The notes under the pieces: generated by a model
Seen by the model: only the letters and a program-made list of their open reading frames with translations
Database searches by the model: none
Told to the model about the DNA's origin: nothing
Assembly (NCBI GenBank): GCA_947463515.1
Contig: CANHRI010000002.1
Coordinates: 22,785 to 86,784, forward strand
DNA length: 64,000 nt
Reading direction: 5' to 3'
From: Flavobacteriaceae bacterium
GTDB lineage: Bacteria; Bacteroidota; Bacteroidia; Flavobacteriales; Flavobacteriaceae
Shown here: piece by piece, positions 3,657-54,658 of the stretch
Position numbering within the stretch: the stretch's first letter is position 1
Layout of the letters: every line of letters begins with the position of its first letter
Translations under genes and position numbers: made by a program

Positions 3657-4847
3657 TTAGATTACGCCCAAGCTTTGTCCAACTTCGGTAAATGCAGCAA
3701 TCGCTTTATCCAAATGCACTTGGGTATGTGCCGCCGAAAGTTGTACCCGAATACGCGCCTTTTCTTTGGGCACCACAGGGTAAAAGAAACCGATTACATA
3801 GATGCCTTTGGCCAACAATTGGTCGGCCATTACTTGGGACAACTTGGCATCATATAACATTACGGGGACAATAGCGGAATCGCCATCGATGATATCAAAT
3901 CCTGCCGCCTTCATGCCGTTTTTAAAATAATTGGTGTTCCACTCCAACTGATCGCGCAGTGTCGTATCTTTCTCCAAAAGTTCAAAAACTTTAATTGAAG
4001 CCCCAACAATAGCCGGTGCCAACGAATTGGAAAACAAATACGGACGAGAGCGTTGACGCAAAATTTCAATAATTTCTTTTTTGGCTGTTGTATATCCTCC
4101 CATGGCACCACCCAAGGCTTTCCCGAGGGTTCCTGTGATAATATCCACACGTCCCATAACGCCTTTTGCTTCAAGCGTTCCCTTGCCCGTAGACCCAATA
4201 AAACCTGCAGCATGGCATTCGTCGACCATCACCATCGCATCGTATTGATCGGACAAATCACATATTTTGTCCAACGGAGCAACCAAGCCATCCATAGAAA
4301 ACACTCCGTCTGTAACAATCAATTTAAATCGATGCCCTGCAGCTGTAGCTTTTTGAAGTTGCACCTCCAAATCAGCCATGTTGTTATTTTCATAGCGATA
4401 ACGAGCTGCTTTACACAAACGAACGCCATCAATAATCGAGGCATGGTTCAAACTATCAGAAATAATACAATCTTCTTCGCCCAACAAAGGTTCAAAAACC
4501 CCTCCATTGGCATCAAAAGCAGCGGCATATAAAATGGTATCCTCTGTACCATAAAAATCGGCAATTTTTTGCTCCAAGGTTTTGTGTATATCTTGTGTAC
4601 CACAGATAAAACGTACCGACGACATTCCGAAACCATGCGTATCGAGCGCTTCTTTGGCTGCTTGAACGACTTCTGGATGCGAAGACAATCCGAGGTAGTT
4701 ATTGGCACAAAAGTTCAAAACGGTCTCCCCGTTGACAATAATTTCAGCCCCTTGAGGCGAGGTGATGATTCGTTCTTTTTTGTACAAGCCTCCTTCTTTA
4801 ATGGCTTGAATTTCCTGTTGCAGATGCTCTTGAATTTTTCCGTACAT
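3657..4847 (-). CDS. kbl: Glycine C-acetyltransferase (2-amino-3-ketobutyrate CoA ligase)
   Basis: [47 protein letters not shown] motifs; start moved to MYGKIQ. Confidence 0.95.
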
Positions 4848-4851
4848 AATC

Positions 4852-7800
4852 TTAATTCGTTTGTTCTTGCAAATGTACAACTTCAACGTGTTCGCCAATA
4901 TAAACCAAACATTTTTTCCGTACTTGCCAACCCATCGCTTCTAAGGCTGTTTGATACCCTTCCAATTGGGCGCGATAGGCTTCTTTGTGGCTACCTGTTT
5001 TGTAATCTAATAAAACAGCGGTTTGATCGTCAAAAACTACCACACGATCGGGCTTTAAAACGGGTCCTTGTGGCAATAAAAAAGTTTGCTCGATGTACAC
5101 ACGCCCTTTTTCTGAAAAAAATTCAACCAACTCCGGATGGGTTACCACGGCAAAAAGGGTTTGTTGAATCAATTCCTTTTGTGAAGCCGCTAACAATCCT
5201 TCCTCTAGCGCATTTACTAAAACCATTTCTATATCGCGGATTGTGGTAACCGATGCCAAAATTTCGTGTACCAAATTTCCATAAGCAATGGCATCGCCCT
5301 GTTTCGTATTCCACATTAAGCTTTCCCTTTGGGCAATTTTGATGTTGCTCGGACTAAATAAAGCTTTCACTTTGGGAATGAGCATGGAACTAACCCCAAC
5401 ATCGTCGGGCGTGGAACGACGCACTGCTTCACCAAAACGTACTTTTCCTTGATCAAGTGAGTAACCTTTGGATTCTAAAAACGCAAGGAAGAAGGACGAC
5501 AAATTGGACGGTAGTTCACCCTTACTCGTACGATTTTCGGCAGAAATAACATACAACTGCTCTTCGGCACGGGTCATAGCAACATATAATACGTTGATAT
5601 TGTCCAGCAACTCTTCTTCATTTCGTTGCCTGTACACCGCAGCAGCTTCGGGACTGAATGTTTCAACCTCTTTGTTTTTTGCAACTAAAGCTTTGGGAAT
5701 GCCTAAGTCGGTATCGGGAAGATTGAGCCACAACTTATCTTGTTTATTTTGGGCAAAATTTTCTTCAGCAAAAGGAAAAATAACAACGGGAAATTCGAGT
5801 CCTTTTGACTTATGAATGGTCATAATTCGTATAGCATCGTTGCCTTCTGGAGAAGCGATGCTTAACTTTTGCGCTTGACGCTCCCAAAAAGCTAAAAAAT
5901 CAGCTATCCCCGCTTGTTTGCGCAAATCGTGTTCCAACACTACATCTTGAAAAAATTGCACATACGCATTGTGTTTTGAGGGTGGAATAAATAAATGGCT
6001 TACGTATTCTACCACTTCATACAGCGACTTTTTGCGTAGGTTTTGCAGTGAAAAATGGGAAAAAGTAGACCCAAACCGTGTGCTTAACCATCGTTCCCAG
6101 TCGGTTTCTAGCGTTTTTGCCATTCCCTCGGCAATGCATTCATGCACGTGGGTTGGATTAAAATGACACGCCAAATAGTATAAAACATTGGCTTTGGCCT
6201 CTTGATCTTTCGCATTATTCAAAAACCGAAGCGCCGCTACCAAGACGCGAACTTCTGCAGATGCTGCCAATAACAAACTTTCCGAAGAAATAATAGGCAA
6301 TTGCTTTTCGGTGAGATACTGTGCAATGAGCGCTCCATTTTTATTGTTTCGTATCAATATCGCGATATCGCGATAGGCAAATCCTTGCAATCGAATCTGA
6401 GCTATTGTATTTACTAAAGCTTCCAAATAAAGATCGGCTTTTTCTAACCCTTCATCGTCATCAGAATTTTCTACTTTTCCGGGTAAAAATTCAAACTGAA
6501 CGTAGCCTCCTTTTTTGGAGTTGGTTTTTTGAAAACTATAATTTGCATACAATTCTTGGTAGTCCGGATGCTGAAATTTTCCTGATAGAAATTGAAAAAA
6601 GTCATTGTTAAATTCAATGATTTGCGAATAACTTCGGTAATTCGTATCCAAGGTTTTTCGAGCAAAATTTTTGTTTGAAAACGGAATTTCTCCTTTTCCC
6701 AAAGCAATAAACTGCTCGGCTTTTCCTCCGCGCCAACGATAAATTGACTGTTTGGGATCGCCCACCAAAAGTAAGGAACCGGGCACTCCATTTTCTTCTC
6801 CGGCCAGCGCATTATCGATTAAAGGGATCAAATTGTGCCATTGCAACTCAGAAGTATCCTGAAATTCGTCGATAAAAAAGTGACGGTATTTTTCGCCTAA
6901 TTTTTCATAAATAAAAGGAGCAGGTTGCTGTTGAATTTGCTCTTGAATTAGGGTATTGAACTCGGTTATTGAGAGGATATTTTGGGCTTCTTGTATGGCT
7001 TTTAACTTTTTTTGAAGCGTATTGAGCAACGAAAGGGGCGTGACATTTTTTAAAAACGCTTTGTAGAACAGCATTTTTTCTAAGGCGCCATACATTTGGG
7101 TTAAATGCAACACCATTTCGGGCAATAAGGATTCGATGAGCGCTCTGTCGGAAGCGGTTTTATTGATTTGAATCGCCTCCGCTTCGTGATAGGTTTTATT
7201 ATTCGGATTATAGTCCTTTCGCGCAATGCTTTTTAAATGGTTGGGGAAAATTTCCCGAGAAAATGATTTTAAATCCACCCCATTATTTTCCAATATCCCA
7301 AGAATATAAAGAGCCTCTTGCGCGGCGTTTTCTTCCATAGCGCGGCTTAATTCAATCAACTTTTCTTTGAGAACAATGAAATCTTCTATGGACTTGTCTT
7401 GCAATTGTTGAATTTCCTCCCGGTTGTTTTCATTCAACATCAATTTCCCCGTTTCAATAATTTCCCGGGAAATGTCCCAACTCTTATCTTCATCGGTTTT
7501 TTCCATGGTAAAATTCACTAACAATTGCGTCAACGTTTCGTCTTCACCCGCCTGCGCAATAATGGCATCTACTGCTTCTTGTAACAATCCATCGGTATCT
7601 AAAGAAACTTCAAAGGTGATGGGTAACTTCAATTCATGAGCAAACGACCGAATGACTTTGTGGGTAAACTTATCAATGGTTGAAATATCAAAGGCGGCAT
7701 AGTTGTGAATCAAATTTTTGATAATCACGCGGGATTTATCTTGAATGGCAACGGTTGACATCCCCGTTTCTGCAGCAATATCTTCAAGTAAATCTTGGGC

Positions 7801-13759: not shown

Positions 13760-13768
13760 TTAAAAAAA

Positions 13769-13791
13769 TTATGAGTTATGAATTATGAGTT
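13769..13791. repeat. 3x heptamer TTATGAR at the purN/rnhA junction
   Basis: TTATGAG TTATGAA TTATGAG TT; one unit contains the purN stop codon. Confidence 0.6.
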
Positions 13792-14355
13792 TTGTTGGGC
13801 AAAAAGAAGTTGTTCAATAACTTTGGGGAAATGTTCTTGTTCGAGAGCATGAACCTTGGCGGCAATACACGCTGCAGTGGTACACTCGGCAATCGAGGTT
13901 TCAAATTGAGCGATAACAGCACCCTCGTCATAATGCGCGTTGACATAGTGAATCGTAATGCCGGTCACCGTCTCGCCCTGAGCCAATACCGCTTCATGAA
14001 CATGCTTACCATACATACCTTTCCCTCCAAATTTAGGCAATAAAGCGGGATGAATATTGATAACTTTGGGAAAAACGTCTAAAATCGCTTCGGGAAACTT
14101 CCACAGAAATCCCGCCAGTACAATCCAATCGGGGGCAAACGTTTGCAACTGTTGTAGCACTTTGCCCTCTTCAAGATCTTGCCGCCCAAACAACACTATG
14201 GGAACCCCTAAATCGGACGCACGTTGCAACACGCCCGCTTGGGTATTATTGCAAAAAACGGCCACCACCGAAGCGGTAGATTTTTCTTGAAAATGCTTGA
14301 TAATAGCCGCAGCATTGGTGCCTTCTCCTGAGGCAAATAAAACAATTTTGGACAT
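13783..14355 (-). CDS. purN: Phosphoribosylglycinamide formyltransferase
   Basis: VLFASGEGTNA, VLAGFL, INIHPALLPKFGGKGMYG, HYVNAHYDEG. Confidence 0.95.
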   Translation of the reverse strand: MSKIVLFASGEGTNAAAIIKHFQEKSTASVVAVFCNNTQAGVLQRASDLGVPIVLFGRQDLEEGKVLQQLQTFAPDWIVLAGFLWKFPEAILDVFPKVINIHPALLPKFGGKGMYGKHVHEAVLAQGETVTGITIHYVNAHYDEGAVIAQFETSIAECTTAACIAAKVHALEQEHFPKVIEQLLFAQQNS

Positions 14356-16215: not shown

Positions 16216-16962
16216 ATGATAATTATTAAAAAAATATTTGCTAAAAACTCCCGTCCTCAGACAGAAGGCGGGATTTTTTTTGAGACCCTACAAACCATCT
16301 TGGGATTCGCTCCTGGGCAATTAAAATATTATAAAAAAGCCTTTACGCACCGTTCCTCCAACTTAATGGACGAAAACGGGCGCCCCATGAATTACGAACG
16401 TTTGGAATTTTTGGGCGATGCCATGTTGGGCTCCGTAATTGCCGCCCATTTATACCGTCAAGTGCCTACAGGTGACGAAGGGTATCTTACCAAAATGCGC
16501 TCCAAAATTGTGAGTCGGGAACACTTAAACGAACTCGGGCGCGACCTCAATCTCATTCAATTTGTGGAGAGTAAAGTCCCCGCCCAACATTTTGGCGAAA
16601 ACATCCACGGAAATATCTTTGAAGCCTTAATTGGAGCCATATTTTTGGACAAAGGCTATGATTTTTGCGAAAAATTTATCCACGAAAAAGTCATCATTCC
16701 CTACGTGGATATCGAAAAATTAGAAGGAAAAGTCATTAGCTACAAAAGCCTTGTAATCGAATGGTGCCAAAAAGAAAAACACAACTTTCATTTTGATGTT
16801 TTTGATGACAACGGCAACGACGGTCAAAAATATTTTGGCGTGCGCTTAAGCATTGACCAAAAAGTAGTAGCCAAATCACGAGCAACCTCCAAGAAAAAAG
16901 CGGAAGAAATCGCAGCCAAACGAGCCTATTTTGCATTTCAAGAAAAAATTAACAAAATATAG
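16216..16962 (+). CDS. rnc: Ribonuclease III
   Basis: NYERLEFLGDAMLG signature, dsRBD with SKKKAEEIAA. Confidence 0.95.
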   Translation: MIIIKKIFAKNSRPQTEGGIFFETLQTILGFAPGQLKYYKKAFTHRSSNLMDENGRPMNYERLEFLGDAMLGSVIAAHLYRQVPTGDEGYLTKMRSKIVSREHLNELGRDLNLIQFVESKVPAQHFGENIHGNIFEALIGAIFLDKGYDFCEKFIHEKVIIPYVDIEKLEGKVISYKSLVIEWCQKEKHNFHFDVFDDNGNDGQKYFGVRLSIDQKVVAKSRATSKKKAEEIAAKRAYFAFQEKINKI

Positions 16963-42387: not shown

Positions 42388-42464
42388 TAGTGACTAGTGA
42401 CTAGTGATTAGTGATTAGTGACTAGTGACTAGTGATTAGTAACTAGTGAGTAGTGAGTAGTGAC
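42388..42464. repeat. 11x heptamer TAGTGAY array (solo arm)
   Basis: TAGTGAC x2, TAGTGAT x2, TAGTGAC x2, TAGTGAT, TAGTAAC, TAGTGAG x2, TAGTGAC. Confidence 0.95.
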
Positions 42465-42469
42465 TCCCC

Positions 42470-49314: not shown

Positions 49315-49353
49315 AAGGTAAAATCTAAATGTGTGGGCAAAGGTAGGGAATTT

Positions 49354-49437
49354 GGTTGATGGTTGATGGTTGATGGTTGATGGTTGATTGTTGATGGTTG
49401 ATGGTTGATTGTTGATGGTTGATGGTTGTCGGTTGAT
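49354..49437. repeat. 12x heptamer GGTTGAT array (left arm)
   Basis: Counted directly; variants TGTTGAT x2 and GGTTGTC. Confidence 0.95.
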
Positions 49438-49439
49438 AA

Positions 49440-49551
49440 AGCTGATGACTGATCACTGCCCACTGCCCACTGATCACTGATGACTGATCACTGATGACTG
49501 ATGACCGATTACTGATTACTGATTACTGCCCACTGATCACTGCTTACTGAA
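49440..49551. repeat. About 16x heptamer nACTGAT/CACTGCC array (right arm)
   Basis: GACTGAT, CACTGCC, CACTGAT and TACTGAT units in 7-bp register. Confidence 0.93.
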
Positions 49552-50816: not shown

Positions 50817-51110
50817 CCCCCCAACCCCCAAAGGGGGAGTTGTTTGTTTCAAGTTTAAGGTTTCAGGTTGCGTTCTAAGAACGTGAATATTCTAGTTAAT
50901 AGTCGTAAGTCACAAAGTCGTAAGTCAACAAGCATTTCTTAGAAAGAACATTTCCAAATCTTCAAATCGACACATTTTCAAATTAAAAGTCGTAAGTCAG
51001 CCAGTCGTAAGTCGTAAGTCAACAAGTATTTCTTAGATAGAACATTTTCAAATCTTCAAATTGACACATTTTCAAATTGCCCCATTGACAAATTGTCCCA
51101 TTACCACATT
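50817..51110. repeat. Composite repeat region: C5/G5 hairpin, GTTTCAR heptamers, AGTCGTA heptamers and a 69-bp direct repeat
   Basis: 50916-50984 vs 51010-51078 match at 65/69 positions; GTTTCAA GTTTAAG GTTTCAG at 50846-50866; CCCCC..GGGGG hairpin directly after the EamA stop. Confidence 0.85.
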
Positions 51111-51148: not shown

Positions 51149-52009
51149 ATGATACAATCCATGACAGGTTTTGGGAAGGCTTCGTTGCCTTTGCCGACCA
51201 AAAAAATCACCGTTGAAATCAAATCGTTGAACAGCAAGGGGCTCGATGTAAATACCCGTATGCCTTCGATGTACCGCGAGATGGAACTCGGTGTGCGGAA
51301 CTTACTATCGCAACGCTTGGAACGCGGTAAAATCGATTTCTCCTTGTTTATTGAAATTACGGGCGAAGAAACGGCGTCCAAAATCAATGCGCCTATCGTG
51401 AAGGGGTATATTGCACAAATGCGAGAAATTCTCCCGGAGGCCGATGCCACCGAACTCATGAAAATGGCCGTCCGTATGCCTGATGCTTTAAAAACCGAAC
51501 GCGACGATATCGACGAGGCGGAATGGGCACATATCCAATCGGTAATTGATGAGGCGCTAACGGCAATGATCAACTTTCGCCGTGATGAAGGATTGGCGTT
51601 GGAAAAAGAGTTTACCCAGCGCATTGCCAACATTCGCGCGCTCATGCAAGAGGCTGTGAGTTATGACGCGGAGCGTATCGATACAGTGAAAACACGCTTA
51701 CGAACGGCTTTGGAAGAACTTAGCGCCAACGTAGACGAGAATCGCTTTGAGCAAGAACTCATTTACTACCTTGAGAAATACGACATTACCGAAGAACGTG
51801 TGCGCCTCGATAATCACCTCAATTATTTCTTGGAAACCCTAGCAGGAAATGAAGCCAACGGTCGTAAACTTGGCTTTATTACGCAAGAAATGGGCCGTGA
51901 AATCAATACGATGGGGTCAAAATCGAACCATGCAGAAATGCAAAAATGTGTCGTTTTGATGAAGGATGAATTGGAAAAAATTAAAGAACAGGTTTTAAAC
52001 GTTTTGTAG
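51149..52009 (+). CDS. yicC: YicC/YloC family endoribonuclease
   Basis: MIQSMTGFG, EIKSLNSK, DITEERVRL, GRKLGFITQEMGREINTMGSKS; promoter TATCTTTG at 51125-51132. Confidence 0.95.
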   Translation: MIQSMTGFGKASLPLPTKKITVEIKSLNSKGLDVNTRMPSMYREMELGVRNLLSQRLERGKIDFSLFIEITGEETASKINAPIVKGYIAQMREILPEADATELMKMAVRMPDALKTERDDIDEAEWAHIQSVIDEALTAMINFRRDEGLALEKEFTQRIANIRALMQEAVSYDAERIDTVKTRLRTALEELSANVDENRFEQELIYYLEKYDITEERVRLDNHLNYFLETLAGNEANGRKLGFITQEMGREINTMGSKSNHAEMQKCVVLMKDELEKIKEQVLNVL

Positions 52010-52708: not shown

Positions 52709-53284
52709 ATGTCAACAGGAAAATTAATCGTCTTTTCAGCCCCTTCAGGTTCAGGGAAAACCACTATTGTACGGCATTTGCTGGGAATTCCCGACTTGAA
52801 TTTGGAGTTCTCGGTCTCCTGCACCACCCGTGCCCCGCGCGGCACCGAAGTCCACGGTAAAGACTACTACTATATCAGCATCACCGATTTTAAACAGCAC
52901 ATCAAAGCCGAAGATTTTGTGGAATGGGAGGAAGTGTACCGCGATAATTTTTATGGCACGTTAAAAAGTGAAGTCGAACGCATTTGGGCCTTGGGTAAAA
53001 ATGTAATTTTTGACATCGACGTGGCAGGTGGGTTGCGCATCAAAAAGAAATTTCCCGAGCAAACCTTGGCCGTCTTTGTGAAACCCCCAAGCGTAGACGA
53101 ATTGAAACGCCGCTTGAAAGAACGCTCCACAGAAACCGACGAAAAAATAAACATGCGTATAGCCAAAGCCCATGTCGAATTGGCCACCGCCCCTCAGTTT
53201 GACAAAATCATCAAGAATTATGACTTGGATACGGCGAAGCAAGAGGCGGTTGAATTGGTGAGGGGGTTTGTTGAAAGTGACTAG
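52709..53284 (+). CDS. gmk: Guanylate kinase
   Basis: APSGSGKTT, SCTTRAPR, EWEEVY, FYGT, FDIDVAGG. Confidence 0.97.
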   Translation: MSTGKLIVFSAPSGSGKTTIVRHLLGIPDLNLEFSVSCTTRAPRGTEVHGKDYYYISITDFKQHIKAEDFVEWEEVYRDNFYGTLKSEVERIWALGKNVIFDIDVAGGLRIKKKFPEQTLAVFVKPPSVDELKRRLKERSTETDEKINMRIAKAHVELATAPQFDKIIKNYDLDTAKQEAVELVRGFVESD

Positions 53285-53344
53285 TGACTAGTGATTAGTG
53301 ACTGGTGACTAGTGACTAGTGACTAGTGATTGGTGGTTGATGAT
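53275..53344 (+). repeat. Upstream heptamer arm, TAGTGAY (8 good plus 2 degenerate units)
   Basis: Begins in the last gmk codons (AGT GAC TAG) and supplies its stop codon. Confidence 0.93.
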
Positions 53345-53381
53345 TAAAATTTATATATTTGACTTTTAAATTTAAGCCATT

Positions 53382-53744
53382 ATGAGTTCAATTAAAAGCC
53401 ACAAAGATCTCCATATTTGGAGAAAAGGAATGGATATCACGGAAGCAGTTTTTCGACTTGTAAAATCATTCCCAAAAGAAGAAAAAGACATTTTAACTAA
53501 CCAAATGAAACGGTGTGCTCTGTCAATTCCTTCAAACATTGCAGAAGGATTTGGAAGAAATTCAAATCGATCTTTTGTATATTTTCTCGCAATAGCAAGA
53601 GGTTCACTTTACGAATTAGAAACTCAGTTACTTCTAGCCGAACGTTTTCACTATATCACTGATGATCAATTAATGCATGCTATTCTTCATCAAATCCAAG
53701 AAGAGGGTAAAATGATAAATGCATTTTCGAAAACATTACATTAA
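53382..53744 (+). CDS. Four helix bundle protein (23S rRNA IVP / bAvd-like, TIGR02436-type)
   Basis: HKDLHIWRKG, FPKEEK..LTNQMKRCALSIPSNIAEG.GR, ARGSLYELETQL; visibly AT-richer than its neighbours; promoter TATATTTG at 53354-53361. Confidence 0.92.
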   Translation: MSSIKSHKDLHIWRKGMDITEAVFRLVKSFPKEEKDILTNQMKRCALSIPSNIAEGFGRNSNRSFVYFLAIARGSLYELETQLLLAERFHYITDDQLMHAILHQIQEEGKMINAFSKTLH

Positions 53745-53773
53745 AAAAAGTTCTTACTTTACAACATAAAAAT

Positions 53774-53832
53774 ACTCGTAACTAGACACTCTCGAAATAT
53801 CGGAACTAGTCACTAGTCACTAATTACTAGTC
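53774..53832 (+). repeat. Downstream heptamer arm, inverted (ACTAGTC)
   Basis: ACTAGTC ACTAGTC ACTAATT ACTAGTC at 53805-53832 is the reverse complement of the upstream arm; degenerate units at 53774-53794. Confidence 0.88.
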
Positions 53833-53837
53833 AATCT

Positions 53838-54425
53838 ATGAAAATAGGTCTCTACTTCGGCACCTTCAACCCTATTCATGTGGGGCATATGATTATTGCA
53901 AATCATTTGGCGGAGTATGCCGATTTGGATCAAATTTGGATGGTGGTGACCCCGCATAATCCGCATAAGGAGAAGCAGACGTTATTGGACGATTACCAGC
54001 GTTTGCATTTGGTGCATTTGGCTACGGAGGACTATCCAAAAATCAAGCCTTCGGATATTGAATTTAAATTACCACAACCCAACTATACCGTGAATACCTT
54101 GGCGCATTTGTTGGAGAAGTTTCCACAGCATGAATTTGCCTTGATCATGGGGGAAGACAATCTGAATTCGCTGCACAAATGGAAGAATTACGAGTACATT
54201 TTACAACACCACGCGATTTATGTCTATCCGCGTATAGCCGCGGGTGAAGCCTTACCCGAACTGCTGCAACATCCGCACGTGCATAAGATTAACGCACCCG
54301 TAGTAGAAATTTCCTCCACAGCGATACGCGAGGGCATTGCGCAACAGAAAAATGTTCGTCCGCTCCTACCCGATGCGGTTTGGGACTATGTAGATGCGAA
54401 TTTGTTGTATCGTGAAAAAAAATAG
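53838..54425 (+). CDS. nadD: Nicotinate-nucleotide adenylyltransferase
   Basis: GTFNPIHVGH, YTVNTL, LIMGEDN, EISSTAIR. Confidence 0.96.
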   Translation: MKIGLYFGTFNPIHVGHMIIANHLAEYADLDQIWMVVTPHNPHKEKQTLLDDYQRLHLVHLATEDYPKIKPSDIEFKLPQPNYTVNTLAHLLEKFPQHEFALIMGEDNLNSLHKWKNYEYILQHHAIYVYPRIAAGEALPELLQHPHVHKINAPVVEISSTAIREGIAQQKNVRPLLPDAVWDYVDANLLYREKK

Positions 54426-54433
54426 CGTTAGAC

Positions 54434-54658
54434 ATGAAATCATCTCATGACAATCCCAACGTAAATCCTGAAATGAAATCCCTCTTTACCTTTCTTCGCT
54501 CTCAATTACGCTTTGTGGGTTTAATTATCCTTTTTGTGGGGGCCTTAATTCAATTGGGGGCCAAATTTATGGAAAAAAACACCCCTGAATATGTTACTCT
54601 ATTTTATGTCGTTGGATTGGGTTTATTTTTACTCCATCGATGGGTTGTAAAAAAATAA
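54434..54658 (+). CDS. Small 2-TM hypothetical membrane protein
   Basis: 74 aa ORF on the operon strand with two hydrophobic segments. Confidence 0.6.
   Translation: MKSSHDNPNVNPEMKSLFTFLRSQLRFVGLIILFVGALIQLGAKFMEKNTPEYVTLFYVVGLGLFLLHRWVVKK

Follow-up and report, generated by a model that had tools for sequence, protein, structure and literature searches.

A four-helix-bundle protein gene enclosed by inverted arrays of a dispersed heptamer repeat in the gmk-nadD spacer of a freshwater Flavobacterium

The stretch of DNA analyzed here (64,000 nucleotides, hereafter the window) is from a Flavobacteriaceae bacterium (assembly GCA_947463515.1, contig CANHRI010000002.1, positions 22,785 to 86,784), and the element under study is a small cassette between the genes gmk and nadD, in which a gene for a four-helix-bundle (4HB) protein lies between two inverted arrays, or arms, of a tandemly repeated heptamer. 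The cassette and its host genes are laid out as follows, in window positions.

52709-53284, + strand: gmk, guanylate kinase (TIGR03263, 4e-61)
53276-53833: the whole cassette, arm to arm, between gmk and nadD
53276-53346, + strand: 5' arm, about nine tandem heptamers (Tandem Repeats Finder [TRF] core at 53276-53329 plus degenerate units)
53354-53361, + strand: TATATTTG, a motif match to the Bacteroidetes -7 box (TAnnTTTG), inside the arms
53382-53744, + strand: gene for the 4HB protein, 120 amino acids (PF05635 and TIGR02436 profile matches)
53776-53814, + strand: short direct repeat TCGTAACTAGACACT / TCGGAACTAGTCACT and weak hairpin CTCGAAATATCGG, leading into the 3' arm
53805-53833, + strand: 3' arm, four ACTAGTC/ACTAATT units (4.1 copies), reverse complement of the 5' arm
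53838-54425, + strand: nadD, nicotinate-nucleotide adenylyltransferase, the downstream host gene (TIGR00482, 2e-50)

The 5' arm starts inside gmk, its first heptamer being made up of the last two gmk codons (AGT GAC) and the TAG stop. The core of the array has a period of 7, with 7.7 copies and 91% matches by TRF, and beyond 53329 two or three degenerate heptamers reach to about 53346; the units run from TAGTGAC, TAGTGAT, and TGGTGAC to the decayed TGGTTGA/TGATTA and are G-rich and C-poor. The gmk product ends in ...VESD* in the window, in ...VGGD* in two relatives that carry the cassette (loci L001 and L002 of our comparisons), and in ...DFIDGKL* in a relative with an empty spacer (L003); the cassette overwrites the last gmk codons, supplies the gmk stop, and is lodged in the transcribed gmk-nadD spacer. 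At the other end, the 3' array stops 4 nt short of the nadD ATG, and we found no terminator-like site between the 4HB gene and nadD. The stretches at 53285-53313 and 53805-53833 are complementary over 29 nt at 93%, both mismatches being G.T. The cassette has a GC content of 0.31-0.35, versus 0.45-0.485 in gmk, and TATATTTG starts 28 nt from the 4HB ATG, a distance that is the same in the orthologous L001 and L002 cassettes only. The hairpin ahead of the 3' arm has a stronger counterpart in L001, TTCCGATTATATCGGAA. When tandem periods of 4 to 12 were examined across the window, only period 7 was found to build arrays. An earlier sequence-only reading of this stretch had proposed much of this anatomy, namely 8-10 TAGTGAY units supplying the gmk stop, an AT-rich gene with its own -7 box, and ACTAGTC units before the nadD ATG; all of this holds except for the distance to that ATG, which it had given as 5 nt. 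The gmk products of L001 and L002 share 97% identity with that of the window, whose sequence is also present in lake and river metagenomes, and the host is a freshwater Flavobacterium close to F. fontis.

The 4HB, or intervening-sequence (IVS), protein family was first seen in 23S rRNA in 1993; to our knowledge, it has two solved structures and no known function. The protein encoded in the window matches PF05635 (1.1e-35; 122.5 bits versus a cutoff of 33.8) and TIGR02436 (1.3e-35; 121.9 bits versus 24) and remains under the cutoffs of the Avd profiles (NF033474, 30.2 bits versus 80; PF22296 bAvd, 30.5 versus 40). Its AlphaFold2 monomer model has four helices and a predicted local distance difference test score (pLDDT) of 93.8, and Foldseek placed 2GSC (Xcc0516; template modeling [TM] score of 0.93, root mean square deviation of 0.9-1.9) and 2RLD (BT_0352) among its best matches, with Avd (4DWL/8UB7) at a TM score of 0.77 and 13-17% identity over the Foldseek alignments; these matches bear out the family membership and the Avd fold that the sequence-only reading had assigned. 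The homologue entries 2GSC and 2RLD each hold five chains of one sequence, in keeping with the description of Xcc0516 as a homopentamer (Lin et al., as given in the Coxiella paper, PMC4990558), and Avd is likewise a homopentamer and forms a positively charged barrel in contact with RNA within the particle of the diversity-generating retroelement (DGR) (10.1101/2023.10.23.563531). The PF05635-type family is large (31,076 clusters at 50% identity, E ≤ 0.001), and the motifs SxPSNIAEG and RGSLxExETQ are invariant across our alignment. The dN/dS (ratio of nonsynonymous to synonymous substitution rates) of the 4HB gene, at 0.05-0.28, points to purifying selection, as of a functional gene.

Inverted heptamer arms are not peculiar to the window. 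We surveyed 95 nonredundant 4HB loci from Flavobacterium, cyanobacterial plasmids, and unassigned metagenome bacteria, scoring the upstream flank of each gene against the reverse complement of its downstream flank with a cutoff of 12; the loci were picked via the protein, only the within-locus controls guard against bias, and the control gene calls are rough. The cutoff was reached by 77 of 95 own pairs (median score, 18.2) versus 39 of 285 permuted pairs (median, 8.4; p = 2e-30), while among 300 control genes in the same loci 10 reached a score of 12 and none reached 18. The best flank period was 7 (37 upstream flanks and 28 downstream) or 8 (3 and 2), with no other period seen, and the arms had a median length of 4.6 units upstream and 4.3 downstream. 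Arrays occurred in 0.9% of 160-nt windows away from 4HB genes and, by a stricter intergenic-gap criterion, in 18-34% of the gaps adjacent to 4HB genes versus 4-8% of gaps elsewhere. The 5' arm has more G than C in 72 of 74 loci; since each arm is the reverse complement of the other, either strand shows this polarity, which belongs to the DNA palindrome and not to the orientation of the gene. A periodic core of AGT was present in 40 of 77 arms and of AGG in 19 of 77. We considered whether the purpose of the 5' arm might be to place stop codons in all frames, which 40 of 77 arms do, but this is about the rough estimate for any G/A/T-rich tandem heptamers and is nonspecific.

The unit itself differs from lineage to lineage. 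All Flavobacterium 4HB genes that we found have (NNNNAGT)n upstream and (ACTNNNN)n downstream, the variable positions agreeing between the two arms (TAGTCCT with AGGACTA, TAGTGAT with ATCACTA), and their cassettes occupy three spacers, eamA|yicC, yicC|gmk, and gmk|nadD; a distant Flavobacterium subfamily has CAGT arms with ACTG arms. On cyanobacterial plasmids the arms are GGGAGTA/TACTCCC, GGGAACA/TGTTCCC, and GGGAAAA/TTTTCCC, at sites between cas6 and cas4, between nrdB and nrdA (antisense), after a traM-like gene, and between a parA-like ATPase gene and parB. The 80 metagenome loci, with proteins 40-58% identical to that of the window, have the same build with many other units, and the same cassette build was seen by eye on viral contigs. 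In two metagenome loci (L101, 187-791; L127, 1231-1850) a cassette with arms has a tRNA gene on either side, the two in the same orientation, which adds a third type of transcribed spacer to operons and rRNA. The sequence-only reading had taken the mRNA-spacer site at gmk-nadD for a departure from the family, but such sites are the norm, since none of the 80 metagenome cassettes lies in rRNA. At least four phyla show the pattern, built from different units; the build is a rule for the protein family across phyla, of which the 23S rRNA IVSs that bear an open reading frame (ORF) are a rare special case, and the window's cassette is an ordinary member of its class.

These observations bear directly on the possibility that there is no functional link at all, and that slippage arrays in AT-rich spacers happen to flank a small gene. 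In many bacteria no long simple repeats are commoner than heptamers, which have been ascribed to polymerase slippage (Mrazek 2007, as cited in PMC4679880 and PMC4692102), and array copy number differs freely among relatives of the window's host. However, complementary flanks accompany 81% of the family versus 3% of control genes, an arm matches its partner but not the arms of other loci, the polarity is nearly uniform in phyla that use different units, and heptamer arms are missing from other cargo found in the gmk-nadD spacer (an acetyltransferase gene in L028 and a gene for a DoxX-like protein in L063), all of which makes a chance association hardly credible.

Tandem heptamer repeats have been known in cyanobacteria since around 1990. 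Were the arms to derive from the heptamer family of the genome in which they lie, the Xcc0516 gene (PDB 2GSC) should be flanked by GGGAATC, a heptamer whose surprising enrichment in Xanthomonas has been reported without explanation (Rehm et al., PMC4692102). In X. campestris, X. citri, and X. sacchari (L167-L171), an Xcc0516-type gene interrupts the conserved accB-accC operon, and its flanks, read by eye, carry GGGAATC/GGGATTC upstream and GATTCCC/GAATCCC downstream, as predicted; in X. sacchari there is, in addition, a gene-less pair just past accC, (GGGATTC)x12 followed by (GAATCCC)n. Other published repeats have related features: the Coxiella IVS, which is cut by RNase III, has GACAGAT heptamers preceding an ORF that is decaying and probably not expressed (PMC4990558), paired, strand-switching sites of five tandem heptamers occur in Geobacter metallireducens (PMC2700814), and the TAACTGA repeats (PMC4679880) are of the ACTG unit type. 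None of these four papers (PMC4692102, PMC4990558, PMC4679880, and PMC2700814) mentions a 4HB gene as linked to the repeats, and in the full-text literature we found no paper linking PF05635, S23p, or four-helix-bundle proteins to heptamer repeats. PF05635 genes inside inverted arrays of the genome's own heptamer therefore appear to be a class undescribed in the searchable literature.

The cassette's unit is also dispersed away from the 4HB gene. Word depth over the TAGTGAC array, measured in four metagenomes, was 18-45x that of the flanking single-copy DNA, which includes the 4HB gene, a multicopy depth taken from metagenomes to which other strains may contribute, and the loose ends of the array lead into many different flanks. 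One such array stands alone in the window itself.

42388-42465, + strand: solo (TAGTGAC)x11 array of the cassette's unit, without gene or partner arm

It begins 5 nt past the recO stop, and ileS follows about 175 nt downstream. Arrays lying farther than 400 nt from any 4HB gene had the unit of the arm in the same locus (at most one mismatch) in 16 of 40 comparisons, versus 18 of 400 with arms of other loci (odds ratio, 14). Many "empty" gmk-nadD and yicC-gmk spacers hold short hairpins in which a G-rich heptamer run is followed directly by its complement (in L019, TTAGTCG... and then ...CGACTAA; L011, L014, L043, L051, and L052 are alike), and a wastewater metatranscriptome contig (run X26; window 53308/53805) joins a TAGTGAC array to an ACTAGTC array 30 nt apart, which to judge by its sequence is a gene-less arm pair of the window's unit from elsewhere in the community. 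The unit is dispersed and the gene is single-copy, so that the 4HB gene can be said, by analogy, to stand to the arrays as a REP-associated tyrosine transposase (RAYT) gene stands to repetitive extragenic palindromic (REP) sequences, in this case with no recombinase.

Other heptamer arrays in the window are of different kinds. At 49353-49550, (TGGTTGA)x12 is followed by (ACTGATC/ACTGCCC/ACTGATT)x15 between divergent metC-like and arsC-like genes; the two arrays are not mutually complementary, and each is rich in C when read in the sense of the gene that it precedes. The eamA|yicC spacer at 50890-51110 holds an approximately 95-nt tandem duplication with AAGTCGT heptamers and CAAATCT-type repeats, and in L009 and L069 the same spacer is occupied by the distant 4HB subfamily with CAGT/ACTG arms. 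At 13767-13794, (TTATGAG)x3-4 fills the purN-rnhA spacer, overlapping the purN stop and ending 8 nt from the rnhA start.

Among close relatives the cassette comes and goes. We fetched 80 Flavobacterium gmk loci, and in the 76 in which both gmk and nadD were found the spacer holds a 4HB gene in 14; the spacers of L047 and of the window are also filled, and most of the others are 5-115 nt long. The spacer 4HB genes fall into at least five protein clades that are 51-63% identical to the window's protein, whereas the gmk products are 82-88% identical, and only the proteins of L001 and L002 are close to the window's (88-92% identity). By their flanks, the filled L001 and the empty L003 are sisters (synonymous divergence [dS] of 0.24 in gmk and 0.16 in nadD). 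A cassette remnant in the L003 spacer was considered and rejected, as the local alignment scored no better than shuffles. The dS of the 4HB gene also disagrees with that of its flanks in both directions, at 0.12 versus 0.38-0.46 toward L002 and 1.13 versus 0.57-0.75 toward L001. The segment is an accessory cassette, gained or lost as a unit; the sequence-only reading had proposed a cassette and named fixation of the gene at this locus across the genus among the grounds for abandoning the idea, and the gene is not fixed.

Several of these relatives have arms or spacers of unusual form. In L001 the 5' arm (4568-4990) has grown to about 400 nt, in six blocks that each combine a heptamer run with a small hairpin, CCCGAAACTTCGGG, and the 3' arm carries a different hairpin, CCTGCCTGCCGGCATAAGCAGG. 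In L054 (4580-4953) the gmk|nadD 4HB gene is spread over two frames by an apparent frameshift with both arms retained, and an intact 4HB paralogue is present at yicC|gmk. The gmk-nadD spacers of L055 (760-1015) and L077 contain an unrelated repeat family, a tandem unit of about 45 nt with the palindrome AGACGCGATTAATCGCGTCT.

This distribution can be set against an explanation in which the 4HB protein is a chromosomal regulator that binds RNA or DNA in the manner of the trp RNA-binding attenuation protein (TRAP), with an array regulon near start codons and the arms serving autoregulation. Arrays commonly abut start or stop codons, sets of TAACTGA repeats lie mostly 1 nt upstream of start codons (MacGregor, PMC4679880), the annotators of Geobacter named such sites global regulator sites (PMC2700814), and a ring-shaped protein, arms of about 4-5 units, and purifying selection on the 4HB gene would all suit a regulator. 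Yet the gene is patchy among close relatives, clades differ at a single spacer, and it is carried on phage contigs and plasmids; an operator needs neither inverted pairing nor a universal polarity, and the gene has its own promoter box downstream of the 5' arm in the window's clade. Nor do the arrays ahead of start codons have a strong strand preference (C-rich in 40 cases versus G-rich in 27), so that the rule suggested by the four solo arrays in the window, that solo arrays are always C-rich in the sense strand before start codons, is weak in the larger set. We regard such a regulator as improbable.

Rfam and Pfam scans of the window agree with the sequence-only reading in detecting no rRNA, reverse transcriptase, or recombinase: no rRNA or any other Rfam family was found, with only subthreshold Rfam noise at the cassette, and no reverse transcriptase, transposase, or integrase was found in the Pfam scans of called genes, in which ileS was named by eye and rnhA, purN, acpP, and a 74-amino-acid ORF at 54434-54658 are unscanned or matchless. 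The only Pfam matches of the 4HB protein are PF05635 and bAvd, without an HUH/Y1 (IS200/IS605-like) match, and none of the PADLOC defense-system models matched it at E ≤ 0.01. Compared with insertion sequences and miniature inverted-repeat transposable elements, the cassette is without a transposase and its inverted ends are tandem arrays; compared with DGRs, it has no pair of template and variable repeats, its flanks being tandem heptamers. A metatranscriptome contig that skips the cassette was considered as a product of excision and rejected, as it is about 93% identical to the window, has its own 108-nt spacer, and is a relative's empty allele. Contigs from related strains show that the 4HB gene region is represented in RNA libraries, although metatranscriptome contigs break at the heptamer arrays and say nothing on RNA ends. 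Two ribonuclease genes in the window deserve mention, of which the second is probably linked to gmk by plain synteny, a linkage also present in the related loci inspected.

16216-16959: RNase III gene (rnc)
51149-52006: endoribonuclease YicC gene, two genes upstream of gmk

The arms could act in RNA rather than in DNA. As the sequence-only reading had noted, they can enclose the gene in a stem, and its IVS-like geometry is valid: in the predicted RNA fold of 53262-53845 a 29-bp stem closes around the whole ORF (-136.7 kcal/mol; z = -4.5), in both the minimum free energy and the centroid structures. In the survey, neighboring genes were mostly on the same strand as the 4HB gene (upstream, 49 versus 9; downstream, 41 versus 14), and the median spacer from arm to ATG was 25 nt, so that most cassettes must be transcribed by read-through, with the 5' arm carried on most mRNAs. 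An RNA-level intervening sequence, in which the arms exist to form a double-stranded stem, the cassette is cut out of the gmk-nadD transcript by RNase III, and the RNA so released is the mobile or functional form, draws on these points, on its likeness to the RNase III-excised, ORF-bearing IVSs of 23S rRNA, on the cassettes between tRNA genes, and on the presence of rnc in the window.

Other features of the arms do not follow from excision at the RNA level. Mismatches between arms have no excess of G.U over A.C (73 versus 104) and thus no wobble signature of sense RNA, and the succession of unit variants along one arm does not mirror that along the other (0 of 16 loci at p < 0.05; combined p = 0.81, with low power), so that neither comparison favors a stem under RNA-level selection. 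The arms thus behave like two arrays that share a consensus unit and slip independently of each other. Conservation extends to the unit, the 7-nt period, the inverted orientation, and the polarity. A stem would need no more than a plain inverted repeat, which explains neither the universal period nor the G-rich 5' polarity. The cassette's unit also forms solo arrays with no partner, a cassette lying antisense to its host operon (L081) keeps perfect arms, the co-orientation of neighbors is only modestly above what is usual for adjacent bacterial genes, and in the window the -7 box is inside the arms, so that the gene's own transcript would lack the 5' arm. A stem is likely to form in read-through transcripts and may bear on tolerance by the host, although as modeled it leaves the architecture unexplained; RNA excision as the mechanism is not favored by the wobble and mirrored-order tests, and we hold it to be unlikely.

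The same symmetry can be read as a trace of synthesis. The arrays might be made where DNA is broken or nicked, if a reverse transcriptase or a polymerase, together with the Avd-like protein, extended the 3' ends with G-rich heptamers copied from a template, much as telomerase does; inverted arrays would be left behind, with or without captured cargo. This would account for a G-rich strand that runs 5' to 3' toward the center on both strands, a fixed, lineage-specific 7-nt unit, unit orders that are independent between arms, gene-less pairs with tiny loops, and the missing wobble signature, and it would give meaning to the kinship with Avd, an obligate cofactor of reverse transcriptase. However, no reverse transcriptase was found among the scanned window genes or seen beside cassettes, no template RNA was identified, solo arrays and direct-orientation exceptions need extra assumptions, and the scheme is drawn from geometry alone; we give it a slim chance.

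We favor a working model, with about an even chance of being right, in which the 4HB protein is a resident repeat-binding protein that belongs with its dispersed arrays, the IVS-like stem being secondary. The cassette would consist, in order, of a G-rich, lineage-specific heptamer array, a -7 box in this instance, the PF05635 gene, and the reverse-complement array. A pentameric protein would bind the arrays on single-stranded nucleic acid with one heptamer per protomer, reading AGT or AGG as the core, which would suit arms of typically 4-5 units, and by binding them would maintain or spread them. In the read-through transcript from gmk to nadD, the arms would close the 29-bp stem and present a substrate for RNase III as in rRNA IVSs, and a stem that is cut in this way would let the host operon tolerate the insert.

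A number of points weigh against this model. Binding, processing, and movement are inferred and not observed, and the idea of binding is drawn only from the period, the arm length, and the shared core. We know of no catalytic motif in the 4HB protein, and the scanned window genes include no recombinase or reverse transcriptase that might act in its place. About 19% of the family members have no clear arms, and in three metagenome loci (L107, L111, and L123) GAGATTT-type heptamers surround the 4HB gene in direct orientation. The multicopy depth of the array may owe something to other strains, and some of the patchiness among relatives could reflect vertical descent followed by many losses. Outside the arms no direct repeat or target-site duplication was seen by eye, at junctions that are blurred by array slippage, and the four DNA metagenomes yielded no joints, circles, or excised or empty alleles of this strain, in contigs that hide rare variants. 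For the part of the model that concerns an RNA stem, the absence of a wobble signature and the position of the promoter box within the arms in the window's clade also count on this side.

A wider proposal can be built on the same model, and we offer it as possible but doubtful. PF05635 proteins would be the missing partner of bacterial heptamer repeats such as the short tandemly repeated repetitive (STRR) sequences, TAACTGA, and GGGAATC, each lineage specifying, binding, and propagating its own unit, and together they would form a recombinase-free system that colonizes transcribed spacers, including those of rRNA (the "IVS"), in many phyla and phages; the arrays might arise by strand-symmetric templated addition. 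If true, two loose ends would be joined, the function of the IVS/4HB proteins and the origin of tandem heptamer repeats, and, should the protein prove to be the factor cognate to the arrays, there would be a system that propagates or reads repeats and needs no transposase. For annotation, it matters that many operon spacers are filled by gene-less heptamer hairpins and by these cassettes, which supply stop codons and probably shape operon expression.

Among known systems, the 23S rRNA IVSs of Leptospira and Coxiella (with the "S23p" or intervening-sequence protein) are the nearest relatives, sharing the protein family, an ORF inside stem-forming inverted sequences, a position that is transcribed and tolerated by the host, and, in Coxiella, GACAGAT heptamers before the ORF. 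The window's insert differs in lying in an mRNA spacer between protein genes with its own promoter box and in having a gene under purifying selection, whereas the Coxiella ORF is decaying; furthermore, excision by RNase III has been demonstrated for IVSs and is hypothetical for the cassette. RAYTs with their REP sequences, and the REP doublets that form hairpins (REPINs), are similar in that a single-copy gene lies between inverted copies of a short, lineage-specific repeat that is dispersed in many intergenic copies, often as hairpin doublets. Unlike the 4HB protein, however, the RAYT is an HUH/Y1 nuclease, REP is an imperfect palindrome of about 35 nt where the cassette has 7-nt tandem units in variable copy number, and any mobilization of the 4HB cassette is putative.

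Avd shares the four-helix-bundle fold and the homopentameric state (in the case of the 4HB protein, that of its homologues), and it binds RNA and works on a nucleic acid flanked by paired segments; the differences are the low NF033474 score and sequence identity given above and the lack of a reverse transcriptase, template, or variable repeat. The heptamer repeats reported to date (cyanobacterial STRR; TAACTGA of Beggiatoaceae, Cyanobacteria, and Bacteroidetes; Xanthomonas GGGAATC; Nostoc GGGGA(C/T)T; and the paired sites of Geobacter) are likewise tandem, 7 nt long, intergenic, lineage specific, and variable in copy number, and the Xanthomonas GGGAATC repeat is exactly the arm unit of its 4HB gene, but those reports describe the repeats alone and propose G-quadruplexes, regulator sites, or slippage (PMC4679880, PMC4692102, and PMC2700814). 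Finally, TRAP offers an analogy of working only. It is a ring oligomer that takes one (G/U)AG triplet per subunit at a fixed spacing with a free spacer, to which AGT or AGG every 7 nt, in arms of about 4-5 units for a pentamer, would correspond if the inferred binding occurs; its fold is unrelated, and its sites are not inverted pairs around its own gene.

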